Shown: positions 1 to 6,361 of the stretch, piece after piece | Position numbering within the stretch: the first letter of the stretch is position 1 | Layout: each line of letters starts with the position of its first letter | Virus record (IMG/VR): IMGVR_UViG_3300009092_000239 | Coordinates: 1-6,361 of that record | Direction: 5' to 3' (one strand) | DNA length: 6,361 bases | Origin: a virus | Notes under the pieces: generated by a model | Databases searched by the model: none | The model's input: only the letters and a program-made list of their open reading frames with translations | Told to the model about the DNA's origin: nothing | Program-made: the position numbers and the translations under genes

Positions 1-123
1 AAGATCATCTTTTGAAAATGCAGGGTGTTCATGGCATTCATCATAAATAAGGACTGCACCATTGGGTAAGTCACGCCAATCAAAAGGTTTATCCTGTGCT
101 GAAGTAATAGCAATTACGCCTGG
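1..123. repeat. Terminal redundancy copy 1, identical to 6239-6361 (circular-genome overlap, not a biological repeat)
   Basis: Base-by-base comparison by eye shows 1-123 equals 6239-6361. The repeat lies inside the Zot-like coding sequence. Confidence 0.95.
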
Positions 124-249
124 ATAAGTACAACCAATAATATTTGTATAGATCCTTCTATGAGGTTCTTTTTTTGAAATTTTATCTATGACCTGCATGC
201 AATACAGTGTTTTTCCTGTACGAATTGGCGCAGAAACTACAATACTCAT
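1..249 (-). CDS. pI/Zot-like morphogenesis ATPase, N-terminal 83 codons; continues across the circular junction into 6238..5165 for 440 aa in total
   Basis: The ATG is at 249 (minus) with SD GAGGGG at 263..258. Manual translation gives MSIVVSAPIRTGKTLYCMQVIDKISKKEPHRRIYTNIIGCTYPGVIAITSAQDKPFDWRDLPNGAVLIYDECHEHPAFSKDDL. It contains a Walker A (AxxxxGKT: APIRTGKT) and a Walker B-like motif (VLIYDECHE). 249 nt is exactly 83 codons, so the frame joins 6238 in phase with the tracked ORF. Confidence 0.88.
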   Translation of the reverse strand, partial: MSIVVSAPIRTGKTLYCMQVIDKISKKEPHRRIYTNIIGCTYPGVIAITSAQDKPFDWRDLPNGAVLIYDECHEHPAFSKDDL

Positions 250-261
250 AATTATTACCCC

Positions 262-350
262 TCTGTCACATCGTCAGCGTCGCGCGGGCGGCAGGACGCG
301 CTTGCGCACATCCCACCGACCCCCGCCACGCTATCCGCTGCGCCCGATGA
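262..350 (-). other. GC-rich (about 79% over 277-346) structured element between the pVI-like stop and the Zot-like start
   Basis: I counted 55 G+C in the 70 nt of 277-346, against an AT-rich remainder. An imperfect inverted repeat pairs 10 of 12 positions: GCGTCGCGCGGG (277-288) with CCCCCGCCACGC (320-331). On the minus-strand RNA, 311..296 can form AUGUGC-GCAA-GCGCGU, a GNRA-tetraloop hairpin. Confidence 0.6.
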
Positions 351-621
351 CTACACGTGCTGTTTTTATATATGCGGCTATTGCGTATGCAGACAAAACC
401 ACTGAAATAGCTTGATCAACCTTATAAAGTTGGATGAAAGCAAGCATGTACGAAGGAAGCCCAAAAAATGCATTTTGGACTTGGTCTCTAGCAGTCGAAA
501 CAAGTTCATTCACAAAATAAAATGAAATGATCGACAAGCCAGTTGAAACGAAAAGTCGGAAAATAAGACTAGAAATTAAGTAGCTTGCAAACCAAGCTAA
601 TAAAGGGCCTAAAGCTGGCAT
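331..621 (-). CDS. pVI-like minor coat / membrane protein (96 aa, very hydrophobic)
   Basis: It sits between the adsorption-protein and pI/Zot genes, as gene VI does in Ff. It has multiple hydrophobic segments. The ATG at 621 lies 1 nt after the pIII-like stop (TAATATG), with SD GAGGG upstream. The last roughly 8 codons run into the GC-rich patch. Confidence 0.6.
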   Translation of the reverse strand: MPALGPLLAWFASYLISSLIFRLFVSTGLSIISFYFVNELVSTARDQVQNAFFGLPSYMLAFIQLYKVDQAISVVLSAYAIAAYIKTARVVIGRSG

Positions 622-622
622 A

Positions 623-2155
623 TTAAGCCCTCACCACAATGCCCGCTGCCATCATGTAAGCAAAGGCTAAAACTAGATAACCAATCCAAGAAGATTGAGC
701 GCAAAGATTCGCAAATGAGATAGATTTGTTAATAGTTCCGAAAGGTGTAGACCAATTAATTGGATAATCGTCAGGACAAACAGACCCACCAGTAGTGATA
801 AGACCAGTATTAAAAGATTGATTATTTAATTCTTTGGTCTCAATTTTTTCATGCTCATCACGTGGCAACTCACCACCAGTTAAAAAGTTTTTAATATCTG
901 TTAAGAGGTCATTTGTAGGACCCATATTGACCGCAGTTCCACCACCACCGACAGGCTTATTGTTAATCGCATTAACAACTTCATTAAGTTTGTTAGCAGT
1001 CGAATTGGTATTCGTATCTACAGCAGATTTAACACTGTTCGTTGCCGCTGTATTCGCTTCTACAGCCGTTTTTACCGTAGTTGCATTGGCATCTACAGCA
1101 GCTTTAACTTTGTCGCCATTTGCATTAACAGCAGCCGTTGTGGCTTTTACAGATTCATTAACCGTATCAAGCTTTTGATTAGTTATACCTAAAATACGAG
1201 AAACATTATTTACAGAGTTAACAATCTCATCTTTAACCCAAGTCAGTTTGTTATTTACAGCGTTAACAGCATCAAGAATCGACCTCAAAATCGTATTACT
1301 CTCAGGTGGTAGAGCTGGAGGTGGAGACGAAGCTGGTGGAGGATTGTTAGGGTCAATCGGCGGAGGTTCTGATGCCGAAGGTGGTTGCGGTATCGGGTCT
1401 GTAGGCGGTGGATTACTGTTTTTTACACAGATTTGTTTACCGTTAAATGTGCCCGGCACGTAATTTGAGCCACAACCAGTAGGCGGCATGTCGCAATAAG
1501 TTGCATTGTTAGAACAACCCGATTGAATAGGAGGTGGTGGCGTACCTTCAGGACAGTAAATAGAACCGTCAGCCATACGGTTACAACCATCATCAGGTGG
1601 TTTATAACAACCGCCATAAGGGTCTTTAGGGTCACATGAAGACTTTGAAAATTCAGGTGTACACGATGTACTAGGTATTTCACTAACAGAAGCATGAGTA
1701 ATGCTTTGATACTGACTACCAGAAATAACAATAGGTCTATTCTTATCCCCAGTCCATTCAGTAATACAATAACTTCCTTCAGGAGTTTTACTGCAAGTAC
1801 GCAACGGCACAGGGGTATTTGGATCAAAATAAATAGGAATCGGCCAACCAGATGCAGGACATTTAGTTGGTTCTTTTAGCTTGGATGTAAAACCCGGCAT
1901 AAGTTCAGAGTAAGGCCCCAGAGTACCTTTCATGTAATAGACACTACATTGAGTACCAGAGACGATCTGAGACGTTCTATATGAAGTTGTTGAAGTATCC
2001 CAACGTTTTTTACCCACAAGTTCACAAGCTACGGCAGCATCAAAACTGCCAAGACTTTCACCATATAATGTTGAATAAAACCACGGTTGAGCAGCAAAAA
2101 CCGAACAAGAAAAAATCGTTATTATTATAAAAATCAAATATCTAAAATAATGCAT
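623..2155 (-). CDS. pIII-like adsorption / minor coat protein (510 aa from ATG 2155; the track starts it at GTG 2200)
   Basis: ATG 2155 is preceded by GGGGG 7-8 nt upstream and yields a classic signal peptide (MHYFRYLIFIIITIFSCSVFA/AQ). A domain with 14 Cys follows, then a Pro-rich linker (1301-1411), an Ala/Val/Asn/Thr-rich periodic region (956-1285), a GGGG hinge and a C-terminal hydrophobic anchor (WIGYLVLAFAYMMAAGIVV). It is the largest structural gene and lies directly after the major coat gene. Confidence 0.78.
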   Translation of the reverse strand: MHYFRYLIFIIITIFSCSVFAAQPWFYSTLYGESLGSFDAAVACELVGKKRWDTSTTSYRTSQIVSGTQCSVYYMKGTLGPYSELMPGFTSKLKEPTKCPASGWPIPIYFDPNTPVPLRTCSKTPEGSYCITEWTGDKNRPIVISGSQYQSITHASVSEIPSTSCTPEFSKSSCDPKDPYGGCYKPPDDGCNRMADGSIYCPEGTPPPPIQSGCSNNATYCDMPPTGCGSNYVPGTFNGKQICVKNSNPPPTDPIPQPPSASEPPPIDPNNPPPASSPPPALPPESNTILRSILDAVNAVNNKLTWVKDEIVNSVNNVSRILGITNQKLDTVNESVKATTAAVNANGDKVKAAVDANATTVKTAVEANTAATNSVKSAVDTNTNSTANKLNEVVNAINNKPVGGGGTAVNMGPTNDLLTDIKNFLTGGELPRDEHEKIETKELNNQSFNTGLITTGGSVCPDDYPINWSTPFGTINKSISFANLCAQSSWIGYLVLAFAYMMAAGIVVRA

Positions 2156-2171
2156 AAATGAACCCCCACAT

Positions 2172-2246
2172 TCATTTAAGCAATCGCGATAAAGCGACAC
2201 ACATCACCACGACAATGATCCAATTCATCAAAGATTCATTACTCAT
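2172..2246 (-). CDS. Candidate 24-aa hydrophobic peptide (MSNESLMNWIIVVVMCVALSRLLK), not in the ORF track
   Basis: Manual translation. It fills most of the otherwise unexplained 110-nt gap between the coat stop (2266) and the pIII-like ATG (2155). It has a hydrophobic core and a basic C-terminus. The SD-like AGGGGA lies about 11 nt upstream, which is long spacing. Confidence 0.3.
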   Translation of the reverse strand: MSNESLMNWIIVVVMCVALSRLLK

Positions 2247-2265
2247 AATGATGTGCGTCCCCTAA

Positions 2266-2481
2266 TTAACGACCGAAAATACTAATGAGTTTTCGACCGC
2301 CAAAGATGACAACAGCAATACCTAATGCCCATAAATAACCAGCATTAATTGTCTCTTCAGAACCAGAGCCAGCAGTTGCTGTATTTACATCGGCAGCAGT
2401 TAAAGCAAAAACACCAGTTGATGCAGCAAGAGCAAAAGCAGCTACTACAGCAATACCTACAACACTTTTATTGATTCCCAT
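2266..2481 (-). CDS. Major coat protein, pVIII-like (71-aa precursor; the tracked ORF 2266..2538 is over-extended)
   Basis: The internal ATG at 2481 has the strongest SD in the window (AGGAGA, 7 nt upstream). The protein is MGINKSVVGIAVVAAFALAASTGVFA / LTAADVNTATAGSGSEETINAGYLWALGIAVVIFGGRKLISIFGR. That is a signal peptide followed by an acidic N-terminus, a TM helix and a basic C-terminus, the canonical inovirus coat layout. Confidence 0.85.
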   Translation of the reverse strand: MGINKSVVGIAVVAAFALAASTGVFALTAADVNTATAGSGSEETINAGYLWALGIAVVIFGGRKLISIFGR

Positions 2482-2485
2482 TGTT

Positions 2486-2671
2486 TTATCTCCTATCGAA
2501 AATGGAAAGCACTCTTCTTGCAATAAACACCATTGCAAAAACCTTGATTACGTACTTGAGAATCTCGTCCCGTGCTTCATTACTCAACTGGAGTAAACTA
2601 GCTGACTCAACACAACTGACACCGTATTGAACAGAGTCTATTATTTGTATTGTTTCGCACAGGTAAGCCAT
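2486..2671 (-). CDS. 61-aa coat-like small membrane protein (acidic N-terminus, one TM, basic tail; no signal peptide)
   Basis: The ATG overlaps the upstream 33-aa ORF stop (TAATG). The stop lies 2 nt before the coat ATG. The C-terminal tail RRVLSIFDRR resembles the coat tail RKLISIFGR. Its position corresponds to gene IX or VII in Ff. Confidence 0.45.
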   Translation of the reverse strand: MAYLCETIQIIDSVQYGVSCVESASLLQLSNEARDEILKYVIKVFAMVFIARRVLSIFDRR

Positions 2672-2772
2672 TACTTAATAATCCGAGATGGTCGTGACGT
2701 AAAATATTTAACAATAAAGTAAACATTTGAAATTAAACCAGTTAATACTAAATACCAGACTAGTATTGTCAT
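2671..2772 (-). CDS. 33-aa hydrophobic ORF, pVII/pIX-like minor coat candidate (MTILVWYLVLTGLISNVYFIVKYFTSRPSRIIK), not in the ORF track
   Basis: Manual codon-by-codon translation. SD GGGGA lies 7 nt upstream of the ATG at 2772. The stop overlaps the next ATG (TAATG). Size, hydrophobic N-terminus, basic C-terminus and position between the ssDNA-binding and coat genes match Ff gene VII (33 aa) and gene IX (32 aa). Confidence 0.5.
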   Translation of the reverse strand: MTILVWYLVLTGLISNVYFIVKYFTSRPSRIIK

Positions 2773-2828
2773 TAAGATATCCCCTGTGCTAACATCAAAT
2801 ATATTCTAAGTTATTGATTTATTTACAT

Positions 2829-2841
2829 ATTATACATTATA
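2829..2841 (-). promoter_or_regulatory. Two tandem consensus -10 hexamers (TATAAT g TATAAT on the minus strand) in the AT-rich gap upstream of the coat-gene block
   Basis: The reverse complement of 2829-2843 is CGTATAATGTATAAT. It lies in the only sizeable non-coding gap (2773-2869) of the structural operon. I found no convincing -35. Confidence 0.35.
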
Positions 2842-2869
2842 CGAAGTATTGTATATTTAACACTTTGTT

Positions 2870-3196
2870 TTATATAGCTTTCTTCGCACTAAAATCTAAC
2901 GATACCAATACAGCCTTTGGCGCTTTGCCTGTGAAATCCCAATCAAAGATCATTGCAGCTTCGGCTGGTAATTTCTGATGAATGTAATCATTAAAGAACT
3001 GAGCGCCTTTAATTTTGTAGTCAGTCGATTTAAGACCGATTGCGCCTTGTTCTTTTTCTTTGGCTGAATATTCTTGCAGTACAGTTACGACCGTATTTGA
3101 AAACGTAATTTGTTTACCTGATGTCTGGTCACTGAAATCGCCAGCGGATTTACGGATGCCCGTAACTGTCATAATTGGATGTTGTGAATTGTTCAT
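2870..3196 (-). CDS. pV-like ssDNA-binding protein candidate (108 aa)
   Basis: It lies immediately downstream of the replication gene. SD AGGTGA overlaps the rep stop, and the ATG is 8 nt after that stop. It is small, soluble and has no TM segment. Position and size match gene V or RstB-type proteins. The call is positional; I recognise no motif. Confidence 0.5.
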   Translation of the reverse strand: MNNSQHPIMTVTGIRKSAGDFSDQTSGKQITFSNTVVTVLQEYSAKEKEQGAIGLKSTDYKIKGAQFFNDYIHQKLPAEAAMIFDWDFTGKAPKAVLVSLDFSAKKAI

Positions 3197-3204
3197 TTGC
3201 TCAC

Positions 3205-4443
3205 CTATGCGATTTTGTAGTTGAACTGCGAAACTGGCTCTTCATACCAGTTTGGCAATTGTTGGTTGAAGTCGATTTCTACGAGCTTTACGAATGGAAT
3301 GATGTTTGATGCCTTCTCATCATGAAGGTTTTGCAAATATGCCTTTGAAAAGCCACATTCACACAATTGGGAAATTAGGTTATAAAACTGAGACTTACCG
3401 TAATTATTTTTAATTTCATCAAATCCTTTTTCACGGATAAGACAAAACATCGCGAATAAATTACGTACTTTAGTGTGGGAAACCTTGCCAGATTTGGTCA
3501 TTACAACTTCTGAGCGTTCAATTGTTTCAAGTACACTTGTATCGTCTGTTAATTTCATAGTTTGACCTCGCAAGGCTTCAAAAATGCTATGAGTAGCTTT
3601 GTTCCAGAGTGTTTGAAGTAAATCAGGGTTAGAACGTTGAAAATTAATTAATTCAAAGAGATTGGTAGGAATTCCATTACGTTCAAGCCAACGTTTTTTT
3701 AAACGTGATTCGAAACGTAAAAGACCGACAGTCCAGTTAATCAAATCCGAATTGGACATGACATCGACAACTCTTTGAGCTGCTTTATCGTTCTTCTTTG
3801 CGAGCATTTTATACTCTTCAAATTGAGCAATAAATTCGTCATGCTTCATATAACACTTGTGATTCACAAGTCTTGAAGTTTGACCTCCCCAATAGACTGA
3901 ACTGTCGAAACGCTTGTTACTCAAACGAGTCTGGCCATTACTGACATTACTCAAGAAATCCAGAACTTTTTTAGCCGTGTTCTGGTCTTTCAATCGTGCT
4001 GAGTAAGTCACATCGATATGTGAAACCCATGCACGAGGCCAATCTAGCATTCTTGCAAGAAGCGGATACGCCTCATGTAAGAAGCCGATCATTTCCATAG
4101 CACCCTGCTCTATATTGTCGCTTCCAAAGACGTTATGACCTTGAAGTAACTTTGCAGGCGAAGCCTTGATCTGTACAAAAGGTTCGAAACTGGAATCAAA
4201 AAATACTTTCATTGCCATACCTGTGTAATGAGTCGGAACCGACTCAAACGGATGGAATAGCGCAGCAGCAGAAATTGAGCCATCGTCATTCTTATGAACA
4301 GAACGAGACGCAAGCGGAATCTCAATAGAATGCAGATCAATATCTACAAAAAAATAACGCCCTTCCGCATCTACTGAGTAGAAGCTGGACTCAAAAGGCG
4401 CATTTATGCAAATATGATCCAACATGGTGTGACACCGTTGCAT
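3205..4443 (-). CDS. Rolling-circle replication initiator, pII / RstA-like (412 aa; the alternative start at M7 is position 4425)
   Basis: It is the largest non-structural ORF, the first gene of the operon, and is followed by the ssDNA-binding candidate. It contains VSHIDVTYSA and HKCYMKHDEF motifs, reminiscent of the hhRhDhxxD and xYdK(x)E motifs of gene II/Rep_trans-type initiators. That comparison is from memory, not a search. There is no obvious SD at either start. Confidence 0.75.
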   Translation of the reverse strand: MQRCHTMLDHICINAPFESSFYSVDAEGRYFFVDIDLHSIEIPLASRSVHKNDDGSISAAALFHPFESVPTHYTGMAMKVFFDSSFEPFVQIKASPAKLLQGHNVFGSDNIEQGAMEMIGFLHEAYPLLARMLDWPRAWVSHIDVTYSARLKDQNTAKKVLDFLSNVSNGQTRLSNKRFDSSVYWGGQTSRLVNHKCYMKHDEFIAQFEEYKMLAKKNDKAAQRVVDVMSNSDLINWTVGLLRFESRLKKRWLERNGIPTNLFELINFQRSNPDLLQTLWNKATHSIFEALRGQTMKLTDDTSVLETIERSEVVMTKSGKVSHTKVRNLFAMFCLIREKGFDEIKNNYGKSQFYNLISQLCECGFSKAYLQNLHDEKASNIIPFVKLVEIDFNQQLPNWYEEPVSQFNYKIA

Positions 4444-4500
4444 GTGACTGTATGTGGCATTTGTATCACAGTTGCTTGTGACAATGCAACAGTGTCACAA
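4426..4500. promoter_or_regulatory. Cluster of five TGTGA(C/T)A / TGTCACA motifs spanning the rep start and the divergent intergenic region; candidate operators
   Basis: The motifs are GGTGTGACACC (4426-4436, palindromic), TGTGACT (4443-4449), TATCACA (4464-4470), and a perfect 8-bp inverted repeat TTGTGACA (4476-4483)-N9-TGTCACAA (4493-4500). Confidence 0.5.
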
Positions 4501-4509
4501 TGATAAAAT
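4501..4509 (+). promoter_or_regulatory. Candidate extended -10 promoter element TGATAAAAT for the 62-aa plus-strand gene
   Basis: TG-n-TAAAAT lies 32 nt upstream of ATG 4541 and directly abuts the inverted repeat 4476-4500. I found no good -35. Confidence 0.3.
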
Positions 4510-4540
4510 ATAAGAATCAACGAGTTTAGAGACGCGTGAA

Positions 4541-4729
4541 ATGTCAAAGACGTATAGAGTTAAAACCGAATATGTGTCACTGATACAAAAAACACACATA
4601 GATTTTATTGTAAAAACAAGATTGCCGATTGATGAGGCCGATATCGTCAATGCCCTAATTGCAAAACACTTAAAAGATTTAAAACCAGAAGATGTTATTG
4701 CTTGGCAGCAAGAGTACAAAGAGAAGTAA
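4541..4729 (+). CDS. 62-aa putative transcriptional regulator (repressor-position gene; possibly ribbon-helix-helix-like)
   Basis: It is the only plus-strand ORF not antisense to a better gene, and it is divergent from rep like RstR-type regulators. Its predicted pattern is a short N-terminal strand (YRVKT), helix, turn and helix (ADIVNALIAKHLKDL). The fold assignment is an inference. Confidence 0.5.
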   Translation: MSKTYRVKTEYVSLIQKTHIDFIVKTRLPIDEADIVNALIAKHLKDLKPEDVIAWQQEYKEK

Positions 4730-4732
4730 AAT

Positions 4733-4775
4733 TCCGAAATATCGGACTAGAGTCCACCATTAGAAGACGTGGACT
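4733..4775 (+). other. Two small hairpins just after the regulator stop: TCCGA-aata-TCGGA (4733-4746) and AGTCCAC-N11-GTGGACT (4751-4775)
   Basis: Complementarity was read directly. GGACT (4744-4748), AGTCC (4751-4755) and GGACT (4771-4775) allow alternative pairings. No T-run follows, so this is not a canonical terminator. Confidence 0.4.
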
Positions 4776-4791
4776 CCCCCAACCTTTCAAA

Positions 4792-4889
4792 GATTCGCAT
4801 AATGCAGATTGATGTTAAAAAGCCCCGTGAGACTGGATAATCTTCTCACTGGGGCTTAGTAACATAATCTAGTGTCTATTATGCGAACT
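4792..4889. other. Candidate XerCD-dependent attP: two inverted dif-like sites able to fold into a forked hairpin in ssDNA
   Basis: Site 1 (plus) is GATTCGCATAA-TGCAGAT-TGATGTTAAAA (4792-4820). Site 2 (minus) is AGTTCGCATAA-TAGACACTAGA-TTATGTTACTA (4889..4857). For comparison, E. coli dif is GGTGCGCATAA-TGTATA-TTATGTTAAAT. Pairings are 4794-4803 with 4878-4887 (10 bp), 4812-4817 with 4860-4865 (6 bp), and 4820-4832 with 4844-4857 (13 bp, one bulge). Confidence 0.6.
4815..4857 (-). terminator. Rho-independent terminator of the long minus-strand operon
   Basis: The minus-strand RNA reads AAGCCCCAGUGAGA-AGAUUAUCCAG-UCUCACGGGGCUUUUUAA. It has a GC-rich stem of about 12 bp with one bulged A, an 11-nt loop and a U5 tract. 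It is the first such structure downstream of the Zot-like gene and the 29-aa ORF. Confidence 0.6.
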
Positions 4890-4911
4890 TTCAGACGCTA
4901 AAAAATGCTCA

Positions 4912-5001
4912 TTACTTGCGTTTAGCAAAAGGAGCAGAAACTATCGTAAAAAGTATAAGAAAACAGAAAAATCCAAAACCCAATCTAATAATTAAATCCA
5001 T
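4912..5001 (-). CDS. Candidate 29-aa hydrophobic peptide (MDLIIRLGFGFFCFLILFTIVSAPFAKRK), not in the ORF track
   Basis: Manual translation. GAGG lies 8 nt upstream of the ATG at 5001. The ORF is on the same strand as the operon, between the Zot-like stop and the terminator. It has one TM-length hydrophobic stretch and a basic tail. Confidence 0.3.
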   Translation of the reverse strand: MDLIIRLGFGFFCFLILFTIVSAPFAKRK

Positions 5002-5018
5002 AAATAAGACCTCGAGTC

Positions 5019-5107
5019 AAAGTGTCTAGACTACGCCTTGAGACACGCAAAAGTATACAAAATTCAATGTTTTACGCGGTGTGTCTCAATTCCCCTGAAG
5101 ACACTTT
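5019..5107. repeat. Nested inverted repeats built on four alternating GTGTCT / AGACAC cores (candidate ori or packaging hairpins, or operators)
   Basis: The outer pair is AAAGTGTCT (5019-5027) with AGACACTTT (5099-5107), 9 bp. The inner pair is TTGAGACAC (5038-5046) with GTGTCTCAA (5081-5089), 9 bp. Alternatively two local hairpins form: 5022-5046 and 5081-5104. The second is followed by T6 on the plus strand. Confidence 0.5.
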
Positions 5108-5153
5108 TTTGCTAAATCTACGTTACATCAAATAGTCGGTTTTTGTAGTCAAA

Positions 5154-5182
5154 CAGCAAGGTTTTTAAATTAAACCTTGCTG
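5154..5182 (-). other. Perfect 11-bp inverted repeat enclosing the Zot-like stop codon
   Basis: CAGCAAGGTTT (5154-5164) pairs with AAACCTTGCTG (5172-5182) around a 7-nt loop that contains the stop (5165-5167). On the minus strand it is followed only by UUUG, so it is a weak terminator at best. Confidence 0.4.
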
Positions 5183-6361
5183 TTTTGCTGCCTGATACTT
5201 AGCGACAAATTCAGCATCAAATTGCTGAACAGCCTGTGGCGCTTGCTGTACTGGTTGTTGCATAGGTTGATTTTGTTGTTGCTGTTTTGCAAAGTAATTG
5301 AATGGTCTATCACCATCATCAATCAAACGTCTGCAATCTGAAGCAGGAACATTAAGACGTGTACCTTGCTGTGAGAATGCATAATATTTACCCTTATATT
5401 TCACGCAACCCGCAAAAACAGGTTGAGCCGTAGCAATGTACTGAGCGTTACCAGACGCGCTGTAAGGGTCATTAGGATCATAAGATACTGGATAAGCAGT
5501 TGCAGCTTGAACTTGCTGATTTAAGCGATTCTGACGCTCTGTGTTGTATTTTATGCACTGCTCAAGGTGTGAGTTCATTAAATCATTACAATCAACAGGT
5601 TTATTCTGTTCCTCTTTGGCAGCTTTAACTTGTGCATCGAGTTGCTTTTGTTGGTCAGCCATAGACATCTGTTCTTTTTTAACTTCTTCACCACCAAAAA
5701 ACTTATTAAAAAAAGGTGAATTTAATGAGTTTTTGAATGCAAAACCAAAAATAACAAGTGGCAAACATAACCAGAAAACCAATTGAAAAGGAATCTGTTT
5801 TGATGACTCATGCTCTTCAGCAGAAATATAGAATTTATATAACTGCTTAGGATATTTCCAGAACCTCCAAGTTAATGCGTTTTTCATAGTCGATAAACCG
5901 AACTGCTCTTGTAGTTCAGCAAATTGATATATGGTAGCCGCCTTAAGTTTAAATAAACGTCTTAAAATTATGTGTTCATTACATGAAGCCCTAACAGACG
6001 CATTTAATAAATATGGTTTTTGAGTAATAAAATAAATATCAATACCAAAGTGACCATGAAGGGTTAACGATCTACCGATATCTCTAATATCTTCCTTAGC
6101 TTTCTCTAAACGCATTTCCTGTTTTTTCTTTTCTTGGCGTACTAGCTCTTCTTTTTCTTTGACCTTTAAATTAGGGTCAATATTAATTTCAGCTACAGCC
6201 CTAATGTATTCCGAGTCATCAATTTCATAAGTCTTTAAAAGATCATCTTTTGAAAATGCAGGGTGTTCATGGCATTCATCATAAATAAGGACTGCACCAT
6301 TGGGTAAGTCACGCCAATCAAAAGGTTTATCCTGTGCTGAAGTAATAGCAATTACGCCTGG
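5165..6361 (-). CDS. pI/Zot-like morphogenesis ATPase, residues 43-440 (5' end cut by the window edge; the true start is at 249 in the circular molecule)
   Basis: The tracked ORF 5165..6115 extends upstream with no stop through 6361 in my manual translation (...LKTYEIDDSEYIRAVAEINIDPNLKVKEKEELVRQEKKKQEMRLEK...). It has a single TM segment (IPFQLVFWLCLPLVIFGFAF) after the cytoplasmic ATPase domain, then a periplasmic C-terminal domain. This is the typical pI/Zot topology. The gene follows the pVI-like gene, as in Ff and CTXphi. Confidence 0.88.
   Translation of the reverse strand, partial: PGVIAITSAQDKPFDWRDLPNGAVLIYDECHEHPAFSKDDLLKTYEIDDSEYIRAVAEINIDPNLKVKEKEELVRQEKKKQEMRLEKAKEDIRDIGRSLTLHGHFGIDIYFITQKPYLLNASVRASCNEHIILRRLFKLKAATIYQFAELQEQFGLSTMKNALTWRFWKYPKQLYKFYISAEEHESSKQIPFQLVFWLCLPLVIFGFAFKNSLNSPFFNKFFGGEEVKKEQMSMADQQKQLDAQVKAAKEEQNKPVDCNDLMNSHLEQCIKYNTERQNRLNQQVQAATAYPVSYDPNDPYSASGNAQYIATAQPVFAGCVKYKGKYYAFSQQGTRLNVPASDCRRLIDDGDRPFNYFAKQQQQNQPMQQPVQQAPQAVQQFDAEFVAKYQAAKQQGLI
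6239..6361. repeat. Terminal redundancy copy 2, identical to 1-123
   Basis: Same as copy 1; the offset is 6,238 bp. Confidence 0.95.

Follow-up and report, generated by a model that had tools for sequence, protein, structure and literature searches.

The route by which a filamentous phage enters the chromosomal dif site as a single-stranded DNA (ssDNA) hairpin has been elucidated in CTXphi, and a few enterobacterial phages have only been proposed to use it (PMC4246890, PMC3089051). CTXphi carries two dif-like sites in inverted orientation between its last late gene and rstR, attP1 with a spacer of 12 bp and attP2 with one of 5–7 bp; the plus strand folds, XerC and XerD bind to it, XerC swaps a single strand with dif, and the process is finished by replication (PMC4246890, PMC3089051). 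Mobile elements that integrate by exploiting Xer (IMEXs) of the same CTX type have also been reported for YpfPhi and CUS-1Phi (PMC4246890, PMC3089051). Here we describe what is probably a further attachment site of this kind in a virus sequence of 6,361 nucleotides (IMG/VR record IMGVR_UViG_3300009092_000239, positions 1 to 6,361; hereafter the window), which represents an Acinetobacter-type filamentous phage with a circular genome of 6.2 kb. We consider it likely that positions 4792–4889 of the window form a CTXphi-style attachment site that is used in its folded form with the host recombinases XerCD at dif.

The dif site of Acinetobacter ADP1 is given in the literature as GATTCGTATAA TGTATA TTATGTTAAAT and that of E. 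coli as GGTGCGCATAA TGTATA TTATGTTAAAT, in each case an XerC arm, a spacer and an XerD arm. The accounts of A. baumannii filamentous phages consulted here describe no attachment site, although one suggests that host machinery is involved, and the literature searched, the coverage of which was incomplete, yielded no account of hairpin attachment sites in Acinetobacter phages.

Like CTXphi, the window phage has no integrase and carries an inverted dif-like pair with one over-long spacer (12 bp in CTXphi, 11–13 nt here) and one of about 7 nt, situated between the end of the late operon and a small divergent gene beside the replication initiator gene rep, and in both phages the arms pair when the plus strand folds (here in silico). 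The relatives of the window phage also share with CTXphi the occurrence of prophages at dif, the regeneration of dif on one side and the formation of tandem arrays. The systems differ in several respects. The host here belongs to Acinetobacter or another member of the Moraxellaceae, and the arms match Acinetobacter dif; the site is more compact, measuring 98 nt, of which 36 nt separate the two XerD arms (about 150 and about 90 nt, respectively, in CTXphi); a terminator-like hairpin forms the tip, with its T-run inside an XerD arm; the short spacer, not the long one, consistently starts like dif (TG); and an f1-type origin lies 14 nt away. Unlike that of CTXphi, the system of the window phage is known in silico only.

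The Inverted dif-Like Pair and Its Fold

An earlier note on this DNA, made from the letters alone, had proposed two inverted dif-like sites at 4792–4889 and quoted an XerC consensus. The positions, the spacers of 7 and 11 nt and the arms of both sites are all as it gave them, and the quoted consensus agrees with the literature dif of ADP1 and E. coli. Site 1 lies on the plus strand and consists of an XerC-type arm (GATTCGCATAA, 4792–4802) that agrees with the ADP1 arm at 10 of 11 positions, a 7-nt central region (TGCAGAT, 4803–4809) whose complement provides the lower strand of a bubble in the fold, and an XerD-type arm (TGATGTTAAAA, 4810–4820) with 9 of 11 positions identical to TTATGTTAAAT, the complement of which pairs with the XerD arm of site 2. 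Site 2 lies on the minus strand. Its XerC-type arm (AGTTCGCATAA, 4879–4889) forms the hairpin's 5′ end on the packaged strand and agrees at 10 of 11 positions with AGTTCGTATAA, the arm preceding TGTATA TTATGTTAAAT at the right end of an array in A. geminorum (L007); its central region (TAGACACTAGA, 4868–4878) is over-long at 11 nt and mostly unpaired in the fold; and its XerD-type arm (TTATGTTACTA, 4857–4867) matches TTATGTTAAAT at 8 of 11 positions, the first eight exactly. Compared with a host-type dif, both sites thus have arms that match the Acinetobacter sequence from the literature. The motif TTCGYATAA occurs three times in the window against 0.17 expected, a count reached in none of 200 shuffles, and the XerC arms form the perfect 10-bp inverted repeat that had been described. 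A search with the 26 dif positions from TTCG onward, allowing at most three mismatches, gave no match in the window, and Rfam returned nothing at the attachment site, its sole match in the window lying elsewhere and arising by chance.

An f1-like origin and the genes read on the minus strand of the window, which is therefore assigned as the packaged strand. Site 2 then reads 5′-XerC arm, spacer, XerD arm-3′, with the same polarity as the top strand of dif, and the complement of site 1 supplies the lower strand of the stem. Folded as DNA, 4780–4900 reaches −27.7 kcal/mol on the plus strand and −26.9 kcal/mol on the minus strand, against about −9 ± 2.3 kcal/mol for shuffled versions (z = −8.1 and −7.8, respectively; 0 of 200 shuffles fold as well). 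The folding test suggested earlier, with DNA parameters on both strands, thereby gives a z of about −8 on each.

The apical stem-loop (4821–4856, minus strand) was described as a 13-bp stem; it is in fact one of 12 bp with a single bulged base (4821–4832 paired with 4844–4856, 12 nt on one side and 13 on the other) and an 11-nt loop. Directly 3′ of it on the minus strand stands TTTTT, the complement of 4816–4820, and as RNA the stem has a folding energy of −20.3 kcal/mol (z = −5.5) and is followed by U5. The late operon ends at the hairpin, on which a plus-strand open reading frame (ORF) of 62 amino acids (aa) converges. A T-run is present in the apical part of 37 of 50 hairpin variants from related phages, and lineages with unrelated, longer apical regions have a GC-rich hairpin and then T5–T8 at the same place (e.g., GACCCCGCGATAGCGGGGTTTTTTG). 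It is therefore likely, in line with the earlier proposal, that the apical stem and T5 act as an intrinsic terminator of the minus-strand late operon. Since the T-run is the complement of the site 1 XerD arm, the termination and attachment functions would share bases in the window lineage. A terminator scanner with a loop limit of 8 nt missed the apical stem with its 11-nt loop and reported only a small hairpin at 4746–4733, which is part of the origin.

Relatives Integrated at dif

Relatives were gathered from a scan of species-representative genomes (4 loci) and a scan of IMG/VR (65 loci), with Rep identities of 57–99%. As the earlier note had anticipated for the window phage, relatives are found at chromosomal dif (L005, L007, L041, L069, L071, L072 and L026), often in tandem arrays, and a functional-type dif is regenerated on one side of them. 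The prophage of L005, a Moraxellaceae genome bin, has condensin-type genes on one side and transporter/YcaO genes on the other; at its start, host flank, XerC arm, site-2-type spacer and hairpin follow one another, and at its end stands a perfect dif. In L007, from A. geminorum, an 11-kb array of elements stands between chaperone-usher pilus genes and a perfect dif. Two arrays (L041 and L071) run from host DNA through a full phage and a replication-only element to dif. Homology is shared by the right flanks of dif in L007, L026, L037, L069, L071 and L072; on the left, the flank in L015 is homologous to that in L069, and the flank in L007 to that in L041. The unoccupied site is also available: in the metagenome contig L074 (TATATAATTG TTCGTATAA TGTATA TTATGTTAAAT AGAATAT) the left and right flanks of the prophages meet at a single dif.

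Comparison of the junctions places the exchange at site 2. The upstream flanks AAACAC, TAACAC, TACCAT, CACCAT, TGATAG, ACTGAT and CAGCAT occur next to three different partners: a site-2 spacer with its hairpin, a third dif-like site, and a true dif followed by host DNA. A C/T marker in the XerC arm moves with the flank, while spacers that differ from TGTATA at base 2 remain on the hairpin, or phage, side, and the exchange must therefore fall within about 5 nt of the border between the XerC arm and the spacer of site 2, equivalent to 4879|4878 on the minus strand of the window. In the Xer literature this arm/spacer border is the position of XerC cleavage. The expectation that junctions would lie in the XerC-arm/central region inside 4792–4889 is thus borne out by flank swapping in relatives. 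The flank on the Zot side, TGAAAG, is followed by a site-2 spacer in 21 of 21 complete sites, and the arm there has the C form without exception; where the contig L059 ends, this flank and arm precede the dif spacer TGTATA, which is what the right junction of one integrated full-length phage should look like. The host left flanks TAATTG and TGACTG adjoin site-2 spacers in every case.

As a side observation on the array in L007, a run of N at 17298–17394 separates two copies of the same 66-nt phage end, after one of which comes a site-2 spacer and after the other the true dif. A tandem repeat has probably been collapsed here by the assembler, and the array may therefore exceed its apparent size.

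Conservation and Covariation of the Hairpin

The inverted pair is present in nearly all of the relatives' loci. About 50 distinct hairpins from Acinetobacter/Moraxellaceae inoviruses, with Rep 69–99% identical, fold alike into an XerC-arm stem, an asymmetric bubble, an XerD-arm stem with one bulge and an apical hairpin. The site-1-type spacer is 7 nt long in 49 of the 50 variants and begins with TG in 49 of 50. The site-2-type spacer ranges from 7 to 13 nt, the commonest form being the 13-nt TGTGATGCACAGA, and begins with TGT in 35 of 50; in some lineages (L005, L006, L040) it has only 7 nt.

In an alignment of 22 short-type hairpins (A1), 91.4% of cells are paired, against 35–42% when the partners are slid, and changes on both sides are seen in 10 pairs; none of 500 shuffles attained the observed score. 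The slid controls and the wholly different apical stems of other lineages agree with this covariation. The first eight bases of the site 2 XerD arm are invariant in A1, and the window carries the same base at every column that is invariant across the 22 hairpins. The forked hairpin formed by the inverted pair, as originally proposed, is accordingly conserved in about 50 variants, with compensatory changes in its stems.

Proposed Route and Competing Explanations

The sequences of relatives support the CTXphi-style reading of the site, and we infer catalysis by XerCD and a single-stranded substrate. On the packaged minus strand the inverted sites would pair into a stem, the XerC arms over at least 10 bp and the XerD arms imperfectly over about 11 bp; the spacers, 11 nt on the top and 7 nt below, would form an asymmetric bubble, and the stem would mimic a dif duplex with 7-nt spacing. 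Host XerC and XerD would bind this folded stem, and XerC alone would swap the site-2 strand of the ssDNA with the top strand of chromosomal dif at 4879|4878, after which replication would turn the intermediate into a prophage. The left junction would then consist of the host XerC arm, a spacer of 11–13 nt and the phage XerD arm, predicted for the window phage to read TTCGYATAATAGACACTAGATTATGTTACTAAGCCCC with a non-phage left flank. Since such a junction should be inactive in duplex form, excision of the prophage is not expected. The right junction would consist of the phage XerC arm followed by TGTATA and TTATGTTAAAT, for the window phage TGAAAGTTCGCATAATGTATATTATGTTAAAT; because this would be a working dif, further elements could integrate and arrays would grow rightward. 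Rolling-circle replication would yield new genomes by starting at the origin in one copy and ending at that of the following copy or of a replication-only satellite. Since the origin lies 14 nt from the attachment site, replication from origin to origin would restore a full genome with a hybrid but intact attachment site, and production of this kind would require arrays such as those in L041 and L071. The tip of the hairpin would also terminate the late operon.

Several points weigh against this route. The support for it is computational throughout, and the junction sequences taken by themselves are equally expected from a duplex site 2 as substrate. Both strands of 4780–4900 fold equally well, and folding alone therefore cannot choose the strand. 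The sequences in A1 are related to one another, so the shuffle control overstates the significance of the covariation. The site 2 spacer of the window, unique among the 50 hairpin variants, starts with TAG, whereas TGT is common to dif and 35 of the 50 relatives; by analogy with the compatibility rule of CTXphi, a TAG start might lower integration. Finally, no integrated copy of the exact window phage was found: its exact Rep occurs on circular contigs only, and there is thus no junction for this phage itself (a look-up of the 412-aa Rep ORF gave no match, and the 406-aa form was present solely on circular contigs of 5–6.4 kb). That the window phage integrates is something we infer. Spacers that do not start with TGT are found in recombined contexts in relatives, with TCA where chromosomal DNA meets the phage at a left junction (L005) and TTT or TAC next to the replication-module end AAACAC (L023); we therefore expect that the window phage would integrate too, perhaps less efficiently, or into a host with a different dif spacer.

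If the duplex site 2 of the replicative form recombined with dif, site 1 and the fold would be irrelevant to integration, and the observed junctions (host arm with site-2 spacer, phage arm with dif spacer) would fit as they fit the hairpin route; the 7-nt site-2 spacers of L005, L006 and L040 could even be workable as duplex. We regard this as unlikely, in that the duplex spacer is 11 nt in the window and 13 nt in most relatives, and the 12-bp spacer of CTXphi attP1 has been reported as unsuitable for Xer recombination (PMC4246890, PMC3089051). A duplex site 2 would also leave unexplained the inverted partner with its fixed, short spacing from site 2, its invariant 7-nt spacer and the compensatory changes in arms and flanks. 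The earlier note had itself raised the converse, a VGJphi-type use of duplex site 1 alone, and site 1 does have a VGJ-like 7-nt spacer that starts with TG like dif, a good XerC arm and an XerD arm with 9 of 11 matches. The junctions speak against it so consistently that we give it very little weight: none of the site-1-type sequences in 73 loci was seen at a junction, the origin block coming after most of them and the rest looking like other phage sequence by inspection, and the prophages at dif have the orientation opposite to that expected from site 1.

The window hairpin might instead be only a terminator, a minus-strand origin or both, its likeness to dif an inherited relic in a purely episomal phage. 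The restriction of the exact Rep to circular contigs, the atypical site 2 spacer and the credible terminator formed by the stem and U5 would all suit such a view, as would the position of the hairpin, since in f1 the minus-strand origin hairpins lie just upstream of the plus origin. A relic, though, would be expected to decay, whereas the XerC arms and XerD cores of the two sites are all intact and the A1-invariant columns all match, and a role in termination or priming is compatible with attachment; we therefore think this improbable, somewhat more so than recombination of duplex site 2. There remains the third dif-like site noted above among the alternative partners (2847–2820 in the window), which could be a working duplex attachment or multimer-resolution site to which the inverted pair is secondary. 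Its XerC arm matches, its TGTATA spacer is exact, and two relatives, phage M02 and L014, have a perfect 28-bp dif at the same place. With an XerD arm that matches at only 7 of 11 positions, no site of the third type beside host DNA and host left flanks always on site-2 spacers, it too is a most improbable candidate.

Relation to Other Xer-Exploiting Elements

Integration through the folded pair would make the phage one of the described kinds of Xer-exploiting element. No recombinase was found in it, the inverted pair and its fold are present, the crossover maps to the XerC-arm border, and relatives are integrated at dif; judged by its sequence, on every criterion, the family of the window phage is a CTX-type IMEX. 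VGJphi-type IMEXs are likewise filamentous, integrase-free and dependent on dif, and site 1 resembles their 29-bp site with its 7-nt spacer; here, unlike in VGJphi, it is the pair of sites that is conserved and not a single site, and the junctions lie at the long-spacer site 2, with none seen at a site of the site 1 type, which does not fit VGJ-type membership. TLC-type IMEXs use a site without an XerD arm together with the activator XafT (DUF3653), and XerD acts first; none of nine ORFs of the window matched DUF3653 in Pfam, and the crossover is on the XerC side, neither of which fits the TLC type.

The pdif sites of Acinetobacter plasmids have the same arms (TTCGTATAA ... TTATGTTAAAT) and occur in inversely oriented pairs, but those pairs flank plasmid cargo genes and have 6-nt spacers, whereas the window pair, in a phage replicon, flanks only a 36-nt hairpin and has spacers of 7 and 11 nt, and it was not assigned to the pdif modules. 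The Ff phages (f1/M13) share with the window phage a gpII-family Rep and a closely similar plus-strand origin core; unlike it, they are non-integrating and without dif-like sites.

A CTXphi-like design is the rule in a large Acinetobacter/Moraxellaceae inovirus family. About 50 variants, many arrays and an empty site make up a natural series from which testable rules can be drawn, namely that the lower spacer is an invariant 7 nt starting with TG and that the upper spacer is free within 7–13 nt. Prophage predictors are misled by tandem arrays and satellites, which makes correct borders important in a genus of clinical relevance, and the phages are linked in this way to the XerC/D-site biology that moves resistance genes on Acinetobacter plasmids.

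The Phage and Its Replication Origin

The window holds a circular inovirus of about 6,238 bp, bases 1–123 recurring at 6239–6361, with all genes on the minus strand except the plus-strand 62-aa ORF. The ten largest or best-placed ORFs were compared with Pfam (nine of them) and PHROGs. Rep (3205–4425, minus strand) is a rolling-circle initiator of the gpII/Phage_CRI family (PF05144 at 3.8e-49, and PF05155; phrog_702), and the minus strand also encodes a 108-aa ORF (3196–2870), small coat-type ORFs, a 510-aa adsorption-type protein, a DUF2523 protein (PF10734) and a Zot-type ATPase (PF05707) that spans the circular junction. No integrase or transposase was found among the ten ORFs scanned, the matches being to Rep, Zot, DUF2523 and coat/adsorption proteins only, and the absence of an integrase asserted before is to that extent upheld. 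The matches to PF05144, PF05155, PF05707, PF10734 and PHROGs, together with the origin alignment, place the phage among Inoviridae with a gpII-type initiator. Its closest named relative is Acinetobacter phage M02, with about 90% identity confined to the replication module (2806–4905).

The 62-aa ORF (4541–4729, plus strand; phrog_5219, unknown function) diverges from rep, reads toward the attachment site and sits where CTXphi has rstR. The region 4430–4717, made up of this ORF and the gap to rep, is unconserved among phages that are about 90% identical in Rep and the attachment site, and in this it resembles the heteroimmune rstR variants of CTXphi. Inverted repeats at 4428–4499 resemble operators.

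The f1-type plus-strand origin (4733–4777, minus strand) consists of a hairpin with a nick-site homologue and then a second hairpin. Its sequence GGAGTCCACGTCTTCTAATGGTGGACTCTAGTCCGATATTTCGGA aligns with f1 GGAGTCCACGTTCTTTAATAGTGGACTCTTGTTCCAAACTGGAAC, with a score of 55 on the minus strand against 26 on the other, and L005 and L006 have kept the origin block. The nick, placed as in f1, would be near 4762|4761. On the other side of the attachment site, the 275-nt non-coding stretch between Zot and site 2 has no significant overall structure (z = −1.1). Within it, 5019–5107 contains nested long-range inverted repeats (AAAGTGTCT/AGACACTTT and TTGAGACAC/GTGTCTCAA), which may be a packaging signal or minus-strand origin.

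A Third dif-Like Site and the Replication Module

The third match to TTCGYATAA, absent from the earlier note, belongs to the third dif-like site, ACTTCGTATAA TGTATA ATATGTAAATA (2820–2847, minus strand), which combines a matching XerC arm and an exact dif spacer with a degenerate XerD arm (7/11). It has the polarity of site 2 and lies just past the 108-aa ORF, at the far end of the replication module, which it and the attachment site bracket. Homology with relatives begins at 2806–2834, and the breakpoints fall there and at about 4905. The upstream flank of the third site (AAACAC/TAACAC) adjoins, in other contexts, a site-2 spacer or a true dif. The perfect 28-bp dif (ACTTCGTATAA TGTATA TTATGTTAAAT) that occupies its place in phage M02 (L001, 5918–5945) and L014 (6606–6633) is followed by sequence matching DNA beside a second dif-like site in the chromosomes L026 and L074, and the third site recurs about 0.4–0.8 kb past it. 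This suggests that M02 and L014 captured dif-adjacent DNA.

Elements of 2.10–2.16 kb with terminal repeats or in tandem were found as whole contigs (L018, L034, L058, L065) and at L015:396–4476. Checked in L034, they contain the small divergent ORF, rep and the 108-aa ORF together with the folded attachment site; circular and tandemly repeated forms exist, and so do copies in arrays beside full prophages. Like RS1 of CTXphi they hold replication genes and an attachment site only and lie in arrays beside full prophages, and they may be taken to resemble RS1-type satellites; unlike in RS1, no rstC-like antirepressor was identified in them. The structural and replication modules, as far as their identities indicate, have separate histories: in L063 the structural genes are 82–88% identical to those of the window and the replication module only 75%, whereas M02 has the reverse pattern.

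A wider reading, which we put forward tentatively and hold to be rather less probable than not, is that the block 2820–4889, comprising replication, immunity and attachment, is a mobile Xer-exploiting cassette that also exists free as the 2.1-kb satellite. It would insert by the hairpin route into dif or into the third-site mimic, and XerCD would shuffle replication modules among unrelated structural modules and occasionally capture dif-adjacent DNA. The reading is put forward because the module-end flank joins a site-2 spacer, the third site or a true dif, because the breakpoints fall at 2806–2834 and about 4905, because the two modules of L063 differ in identity, and because M02 and L014 hold a perfect dif with dif-adjacent DNA at the place of the third site.

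Other dif-Like Sites in the Relatives

The second dif-like site in the chromosomes, AAGTCGCATAA CTTCATT TTATGTTAAAT, is found at L026:4157–4185, L071:11774–11802 and L074:3768–3796, with a variant at L037:6250–6277, and has the true dif 1.6–2.1 kb to its left. After it, L037 and L071 repeat about 130–150 nt of the host right flank. The site may mark a different small Xer-exploiting element that uses the XerD side. A separate lineage, with Rep 72–80% identical, has TTCGCATAA CTTACGA TTATGTTAAAT followed by a host-like flank on the strand opposite rep (L040:2099, L044:3414, L052:2856, L053:118, L054:2856, L062:1250), an arrangement that implies a different integration geometry, possibly by XerD-side exchange.

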